In this document: positions 54,194 through 54,311 of the stretch, piece after piece
Layout: each line of letters starts with the position of its first letter
Position numbering within the stretch: the stretch's first letter is position 1
The notes under the pieces: model-generated
The model's database searches: none
Seen by the model: the letters and a program-made list of their open reading frames with translations, nothing else
Told to the model about the DNA's origin: nothing
NCBI RefSeq assembly: GCF_024502345.1
Contig: NZ_JALDNN010000001.1
DNA from: Escherichia coli
GTDB taxonomy: Bacteria > Pseudomonadota > Gammaproteobacteria > Enterobacterales > Enterobacteriaceae
Strand: one strand, 5' to 3'
DNA length: 64,000 nucleotides
Translations under genes and position numbers: made by a program

Positions 54194-54238
54194 ATGAATG
54201 CTGCTATTTTCCGCTTCTTTTTTTACTTTAGCACCTGA
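54194..54238 (+). CDS. pheM: pheST operon leader peptide
   Basis: 14-aa [14 protein letters not shown] with 5 Phe codons, immediately upstream of the attenuator hairpin. Confidence 0.9.
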
Positions 54239-54284
54239 ATCCAGGAGGCTAGCGCGTGAGAAGAGAAACGGAAAACAGCGCCTG

Positions 54285-54311
54285 AAAGCCTCCCAGTGGA
54301 GGCTTTTTTTG
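54285..54311 (+). terminator. pheST attenuator terminator
   Basis: agcctccc agt gggaggct followed by T7, between pheM and pheS. Confidence 0.8.

Follow-up and report, generated by a model that had tools for sequence, protein, structure and literature searches.

The window analysed here is a stretch of 64,000 nt from Escherichia coli. Positions are given in its own numbering, and features lie on the plus strand unless otherwise stated. NCBIfam equivalogs gave the gene order thrS, rplT, leader, pheS, pheT, ihfA. The three genes downstream of the leader, pheS (54521-55504), pheT (55519-57906) and ihfA (57911-58210), were identified by TIGR00468, TIGR00472 and TIGR00987, respectively, and are also annotated in RefSeq. 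On the upstream side, the rplT stop codon is at 54069-54071. It is followed by a hairpin with a U-rich tail (AAAGAGGGAGC-UAG-UCUCCCUCUUU, 54079-54105; -15.6 kcal/mol on folding), which may end the upstream transcription unit and closely precedes the presumed pheM promoter. This promoter occupies 54127-54155 and consists of TTGACT (54127-54132) and TTCAAT (54150-54155) separated by 17 nt. It was not reported by a consensus promoter scan because its -10 hexamer has no A at position 2. The elements TTGAC and TTTTCAAT are partly conserved among Enterobacteriaceae. Judged from its sequence, the TTGACT-17-TTCAAT pair presumably drives pheM, with a transcription start near 54162.

Several other features of the window were observed. 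The infC gene (52826-53368, RefSeq coordinates) has an unusual ATT start at 52826, 4 nt past the thrS stop, and is represented in the mechanical ORF list only from an internal TTG start at 52934. Two stretches matched sRNA families in Rfam. The enterobacterial sRNA STnc540 was found in the gap between ihfA and btuC (58152-58310, 67.4 bits versus a gathering score of 38), and ES036 (CssrF) was found on the minus strand at 30289-30331, barely over its threshold (38.0 versus 37.6 bits).

The leader gene, pheM, is an ORF of 14 codons with its ATG at 54194 and its TGA at 54236-54238. RefSeq annotates 54194-54238 as the CDS "pheST operon leader peptide PheM". An earlier note on this DNA had described a 14-codon ORF with five Phe codons, and the translation of 54194-54238 bore this out. 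The Phe residues are at codons 6, 8, 9, 10 and 12 (UUC UUC UUU UUU UUU); these regulatory codons span 54209-54229, with five Phe within seven residues. A Shine-Dalgarno sequence, AAGG (54179-54182), lies 11 nt 5′ of the ATG, and the stretch from it to the start, AAGGTAACGCAAGC(A)ATG, is kept across the orthologue alignment. Thus, pheM has what characterizes the ORF of a leader-peptide attenuator: it is short and translatable, has a Shine-Dalgarno sequence and a start codon, and contains clustered Phe codons. Among the ATG-started ORFs of at most 30 codons in the six frames of the 64-kb window, it was the sole case with at least five Phe in seven residues. In 100 shuffles of the window, no comparable Phe-rich mini-ORF was found. 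Another Phe-rich mini-ORF, MQLFFFCFKTGPNNKPHHN, which begins at 8346 on the minus strand and has four Phe in seven residues, was judged to be a chance ORF because it is antisense within a 288-aa plus-strand ORF (8170-9036).

An intrinsic terminator (segments 3:4, 54284-54310) is located between the pheM ORF and pheS, which starts at 54521. Its hairpin, GAAAGCCUCC-CAGU-GGAGGCUUUU at 54284-54307, folded with 10 pairs and -14.5 kcal/mol and is accompanied by seven consecutive T residues (54304-54310). In the earlier note, the T-run and the coordinates were already correct. The arms given there, agcctccc and gggaggct, each had one base too many: gggaggct is absent from the sequence, which reads gtggaggct, and the arms are AGCCUCC and GGAGGCU with the loop CAGU. 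The motif GGAGGCU is present twice, once as the 5′ arm of the antiterminator (54244-54250) and once as the 3′ arm of the terminator (54298-54304). Both copies therefore compete for one AGCCUCC (54287-54293).

The Phe codon run is itself involved in pairing. In the MFE and centroid structures, a segment 1:2 helix (the anti-antiterminator) extends over 54207-54275, where the codon run (54207-54226) pairs with a purine-rich segment (54256-54275) and an apical extension joins 54228-54237 to 54242-54252. The fold gave this helix a length of about 19-25 bp, and it contains the regulatory Phe codons. The antiterminator (2:3, 54244-54293) was obtained from the nascent fold with a stalled ribosome. It pairs GGAGGCU (54244-54250) with AGCCUCC (54287-54293) and has six extra pairs, AG (54251-54252) with CU (54282-54283) and GCGU (54254-54257) with GCGC (54278-54281).

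The unconstrained fold of 54190-54320 comprised the 1:2 helix and the terminator and had an energy of -53.8 kcal/mol (z = -5.1 versus dinucleotide shuffles). When the full-length leader was folded at equilibrium, the terminator hairpin persisted even under a ribosome mask. Such persistence is no surprise, since the choice between termination and read-through falls before synthesis of the 3′ arm. As the terminator is always there, the equilibrium fold of the full-length masked leader is unsuitable as a test of attenuation, and we substituted folds of nascent transcripts that end at 54295 or 54297, before the terminator 3′ arm. The ribosome was represented by a mask of 30 nt, which assumes a footprint of ~15 nt on either side of the A-site codon. 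The 1:2 helix formed, and the terminator 5′ arm was unpaired, both in the absence of a ribosome and with the mask at the stop codon. With the mask at Phe codon 8, 9, 10 or 12, the MFE structure was the antiterminator (-17.0 kcal/mol), which sequestered 7 nt of the terminator 5′ arm. In nascent RNA, a structure that shares the bases of this arm was thus favoured by the stall mask only. The earlier note had proposed alternative antiterminator and terminator hairpins in 54190-54320 and made its reading depend on their being mutually exclusive. The nascent folds contain such mutually exclusive structures, and so this part of its reading survives.

The dinucleotide-preserving control comprised 1000 shuffles of 54239-54283, and the switch was reproduced in only 17 of them. 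The nascent-RNA energy, -39.1 kcal/mol, was below that of every shuffle (mean -24.9, minimum -36.6 kcal/mol). The predicted switch becomes visible only in a kinetic model, in which the nascent RNA stops short of the 3′ arm, and this truncation is an assumption of the computation. A kinetic model of this kind, with nascent RNA that lacks the 3′ arm, is the accepted model of attenuation.

We then consider the identity of the element. Rfam family RF01859 (Phe_leader) matched 54188-54312 over model positions 1-125, with 75 bits versus a gathering score of 55 and E = 6.8e-11 over the whole window. In a permissive Rfam scan of 54050-54540, only Phe_leader was above its threshold and no other family came near its own. 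The segment 54072-54325 is base for base that of E. coli K-12 MG1655, in which pheM is b1715, and the leader region was matched in 5425 of 5426 complete E. coli genomes. All ten of the RefSeq records listed carry both the pheM CDS and a "Phe leader region"; the K-12 RefSeq record has the CDS and no "Phe leader region" feature. The element had been expected to be missed by automated ORF calling. That is true of a naive ORF list with a 20-aa minimum, but RefSeq annotates pheM both in the ten listed records and in K-12. Therefore, automated annotation does not overlook the element.

A scan for PheS gave 80 loci in Enterobacterales, 77 of which had enough upstream DNA, and 72 distinct leader sequences were compared. 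Escherichia, Salmonella, Citrobacter, Enterobacter, Erwinia and Pantoea are included, as are Yersinia, Dickeya, Rahnella, Hafnia, Edwardsiella and Lonsdalea. A Phe-rich leader ORF was present upstream of pheS in 76 of the 77 loci, in most of them with the core FRFFFYFS, and a codon run of the FRFFFYF type was found in 71 distinct leader sequences from these loci. The in-frame pheM ATG was found in all 72 orthologues. The element studied here has the features of this orthologue group, namely the position between rplT and pheS, the same strand and the peptide core FRFFFYFS. With a stalled ribosome, the fold captured at least 5 nt of the terminator 5′ arm in each of the 72 distinct leaders. Comparatively, capture of at least 5 nt was seen in seven of the 72 without a ribosome and in five when the ribosome stood at the stop codon. 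The terminator stems were nearly invariant among orthologues, and the loops and the spacer were variable. The leaders of Yersinia (L064-L066 and L079) are separated from pheS by a far longer distance (276-396 nt) and differ at the N-terminus, one form being MTHTVTFRFSFYFSA, with only four Phe.

At the terminator and the antiterminator, MAFFT slipped by one or two columns. These two structures were therefore assessed by per-sequence folding, and alignment pair counts were restricted to the 1:2 helix, which aligned well. Over the 72 orthologues, 94% of the cells in this helix were paired. Changes on both sides were found for two pairs only, one of which changed from C-G to U-A in nine sequences. 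Since 194 of 500 shuffles reached a covariation count of two pairs, this is not above the control. The element varies very little across Enterobacterales, and compensatory changes are scarce for this reason.

The codons of pheM were more informative. UUC-8, UUU-10, UAC-11, UUU-12 and the UGA stop were fixed in all 72 orthologues. In pheS of the same 72 genomes, by comparison, only one of 220 amino-acid-invariant codons was itself invariant, and this held for none of the 20 Phe codons and none of the six Tyr codons. As the pheM codons are fixed while the synonymous sites of pheS vary, the constraint on pheM is not at the protein level. The frozen synonymous sites fit their predicted position in the 1:2 helix. 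For the RNA structure of pheM, this constraint at the codon level is a stronger argument than covariation. In this respect pheM offers a worked example of an RNA structure that is evidenced by frozen synonymous sites and not by covariation.

Between the attenuator and pheS, a palindromic dispersed repeat of ~147 nt is inserted at 54326-54472 (boundaries accurate to ~3 nt). It is outside the attenuator proper and forms a long imperfect hairpin (-51.2 kcal/mol, z = -4.8). The spacer from attenuator to pheS varies from 111 to 348 nt among genera. Within E. coli it has two forms, a long one of 282-283 nt in the present DNA and in K-12 and a short one of 138 nt in L002 and H9, and the size difference is a discrete insertion of ~147 nt at 54326-54472. 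The repeat is absent at this site from E. coli L002 and H9, Salmonella and Citrobacter. By coverage, the site lacks the repeat in ~12% of complete E. coli genomes (644 of 5425), and in 655 records the best match to the repeat was another copy. Most E. coli strains, ~88% by complete genomes, thus carry a mobile palindromic repeat within the pheST leader. Over all E. coli genomes, the median copy number was five and the highest was eight; the genomes listed had one to six copies, and K-12 strains had six. Other copies, at qseE-qseG and rlmL-ycbX, were ~90% identical over ~126 nt.

We also attempted to assign this repeat to a known family. An ERIC/IRU identity was rejected, as only a 21-nt centre resembles the ERIC core (18 of 21 nt). 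In the K-12 GenBank record, RSA has a length of 150/151 bp and six copies, and IRU has a length of 127 bp and 19 copies (PMC5172473, Table 1). With ~147 nt and six copies in K-12, the repeat fits RSA better than IRU. It therefore probably belongs to the RSA family, a label that is based on length and copy number. A literature search for a link between ERIC and pheS returned nothing relevant, and the K-12 RefSeq record has no repeat annotated at this site, which corresponds to about 1798991-1799138 in K-12. The repeat might be a strain-variable second control on pheST-ihfA, acting on mRNA stability, processing or pheS translation, and not a neutral passenger; we regard this as rather unlikely. 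Downstream of the repeat, at 54492-54507, a perfect 6-bp hairpin (GUGUCA-CCAC-UGACAC) was observed directly 5′ of the pheS Shine-Dalgarno sequence GAGGA, in a region that is kept in Salmonella and Citrobacter.

These results leave us almost certain that we are dealing with the pheM leader of E. coli, which regulates pheS-pheT(-ihfA) by ribosome-mediated transcription attenuation. Classical Phe-sensing attenuation, as proposed in the earlier note, agrees with the presence of all elements in the right order 5′ of pheST, with the exclusive structures and with the identity to K-12. In the proposed mechanism, transcription would begin upstream of 54194, at the presumed promoter, and a ribosome would translate the leader of 14 codons. 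With an ample supply of Phe-tRNA(Phe), this ribosome would reach the UGA and cover GGAGGCU at 54244-54250 or allow it to pair again, and the Phe codon run would pair with the purine-rich 54256-54275. This would leave AGCCUCC (54287-54293) available to GGAGGCU at 54298-54304, and transcription would end at the T7 run. If charged tRNA-Phe runs short, the ribosome would stall on the five Phe codons at 54209-54229 and mask segment 1. The upstream GGAGGCU could then pair with AGCCUCC before the terminator 3′ arm exists, no terminator would form, and transcription would proceed into pheST. The anatomy of the element, the exclusivity of its structures, its conservation, the RNA-level constraint on its synonymous sites and its identity to K-12 emerge from the present analysis. 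A rise in read-through in vivo on limiting charged tRNA-Phe would be expected from the literature on the identical K-12 sequence.

Other readings of the same stretch were weighed against attenuation. The ORF list gives, for this spot, an overlapping ORF of 44 aa in the +1 frame (54198-54332), whose ATG is 4 nt past that of pheM, and this might be taken for the real coding product instead of the 14-aa peptide. Its ATG is kept in only 52 of the 72 orthologues, versus all 72 for the pheM frame, and so we consider the 44-aa ORF a by-product. It also extends across the terminator, and what RefSeq annotates here is pheM. That it is the true product is extremely improbable. The hairpin and its T-run might also be a plain constitutive terminator or an mRNA-stabilizing hairpin, with the Phe-rich mini-ORF having arisen by chance and remaining untranslated. 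Such a reading could appeal to the weak covariation and to the stability of the terminator in every equilibrium fold, but it has to contend with a specific antiterminator that appears under ribosome stall only and with the Rfam Phe_leader match. The mini-ORF does not look like a chance product either: the window shuffles yielded nothing similar, and among leaders from many genera the ATG is universal, the Shine-Dalgarno sequence is conserved and most have the FRFFFYFS core. According to the literature, moreover, pheM is translated in K-12 and regulation requires this. We give the constitutive terminator hardly any chance of being correct.

The long 1:2 helix could, alternatively, be chiefly an RNase III substrate that sets the half-life of the pheST mRNA, with attenuation being secondary. 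In PMC5371410, two alternative structures of pheM are described, and in vitro cleavage within the pheM termination structure is verified at K-12 position 1799278, which corresponds to 54186 in the window. The same paper found that the downstream message decays faster in the wild type than in an rnc mutant. With its length of about 19-25 bp, the 1:2 helix (54207-54275) is a plausible substrate of RNase III. However, a role mainly in decay leaves the Phe codon run, the duplicated GGAGGCU arms and the stall-dependent antiterminator unexplained, and PMC5371410 itself treats RNase III cleavage as a layer on top of attenuation. We therefore consider it very unlikely that RNase III processing is the main function, and attenuation is retained as the primary one.

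The pheM attenuator is already known, already annotated and ordinary, and nothing in the attenuator itself is new. As a discovery it carries little weight, because leader-peptide control of this aminoacyl-tRNA synthetase operon is long established. It does show that a 45-nt gene and its RNA switch could be located and read correctly from sequence alone. The original demonstrations of pheM attenuation are those of Fayat et al. in 1983 and of Springer et al. in 1983 and 1985 (J Mol Biol). The pheST operon has been cited as a classical attenuator in gamma-proteobacteria (PMC1262725). A PheM attenuator reporter was used in PMC3831192, whose reference list includes the study by Mayaux et al. (1985, J Mol Biol 184:31), in which the pheS,T regulatory region was mutagenized.

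Among known systems, pheM of K-12 (b1715, pheST-ihfA operon) is the same element. The rplT terminator, promoter region, ORF, helices and terminator are identical and the gene order is the same. The attenuator has no differences, and the downstream repeat is 94.6% identical to the K-12 copy. The nearest distinct relative of pheM is pheL, the leader upstream of pheA, which is also covered by RF01859. It likewise has a Phe-rich peptide, a U-rich codon run that pairs with a purine-rich segment, and a terminator of the GCCUCC/GGAGGC type with a U-run, and the two leaders can be aligned over their whole length. However, pheL is an ORF of 15 codons (K-12 2737599-2737646) that encodes another peptide, and it controls a biosynthetic gene, whereas pheM has 14 codons and controls a tRNA synthetase. 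Both score above the threshold of RF01859, with 132 bits for pheL and 75 bits for pheM, which implies that the model is centred on pheL and that pheM is the more divergent member of the family.

T-box leaders, which belong to aminoacyl-tRNA synthetase genes of Firmicutes, likewise adjust synthetase expression to the charging of tRNA by a choice between antiterminator and terminator. Unlike pheM, they lack a leader peptide and sense uncharged tRNA by direct binding, a contrast that is also drawn in PMC1262725, and the T-box model had no match in 54050-54540 even at E ≤ 1. The mechanism of pheM is instead that of trpL and hisL, in which a stall at the cognate codons chooses between antiterminator and terminator. 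These two leaders respond to another amino acid and have no sequence similarity to pheM. In comparison with them, the 5′ arm of the pheM antiterminator sits apically in the 1:2 hairpin, and it is an exact copy (GGAGGCU) of the terminator 3′ arm.
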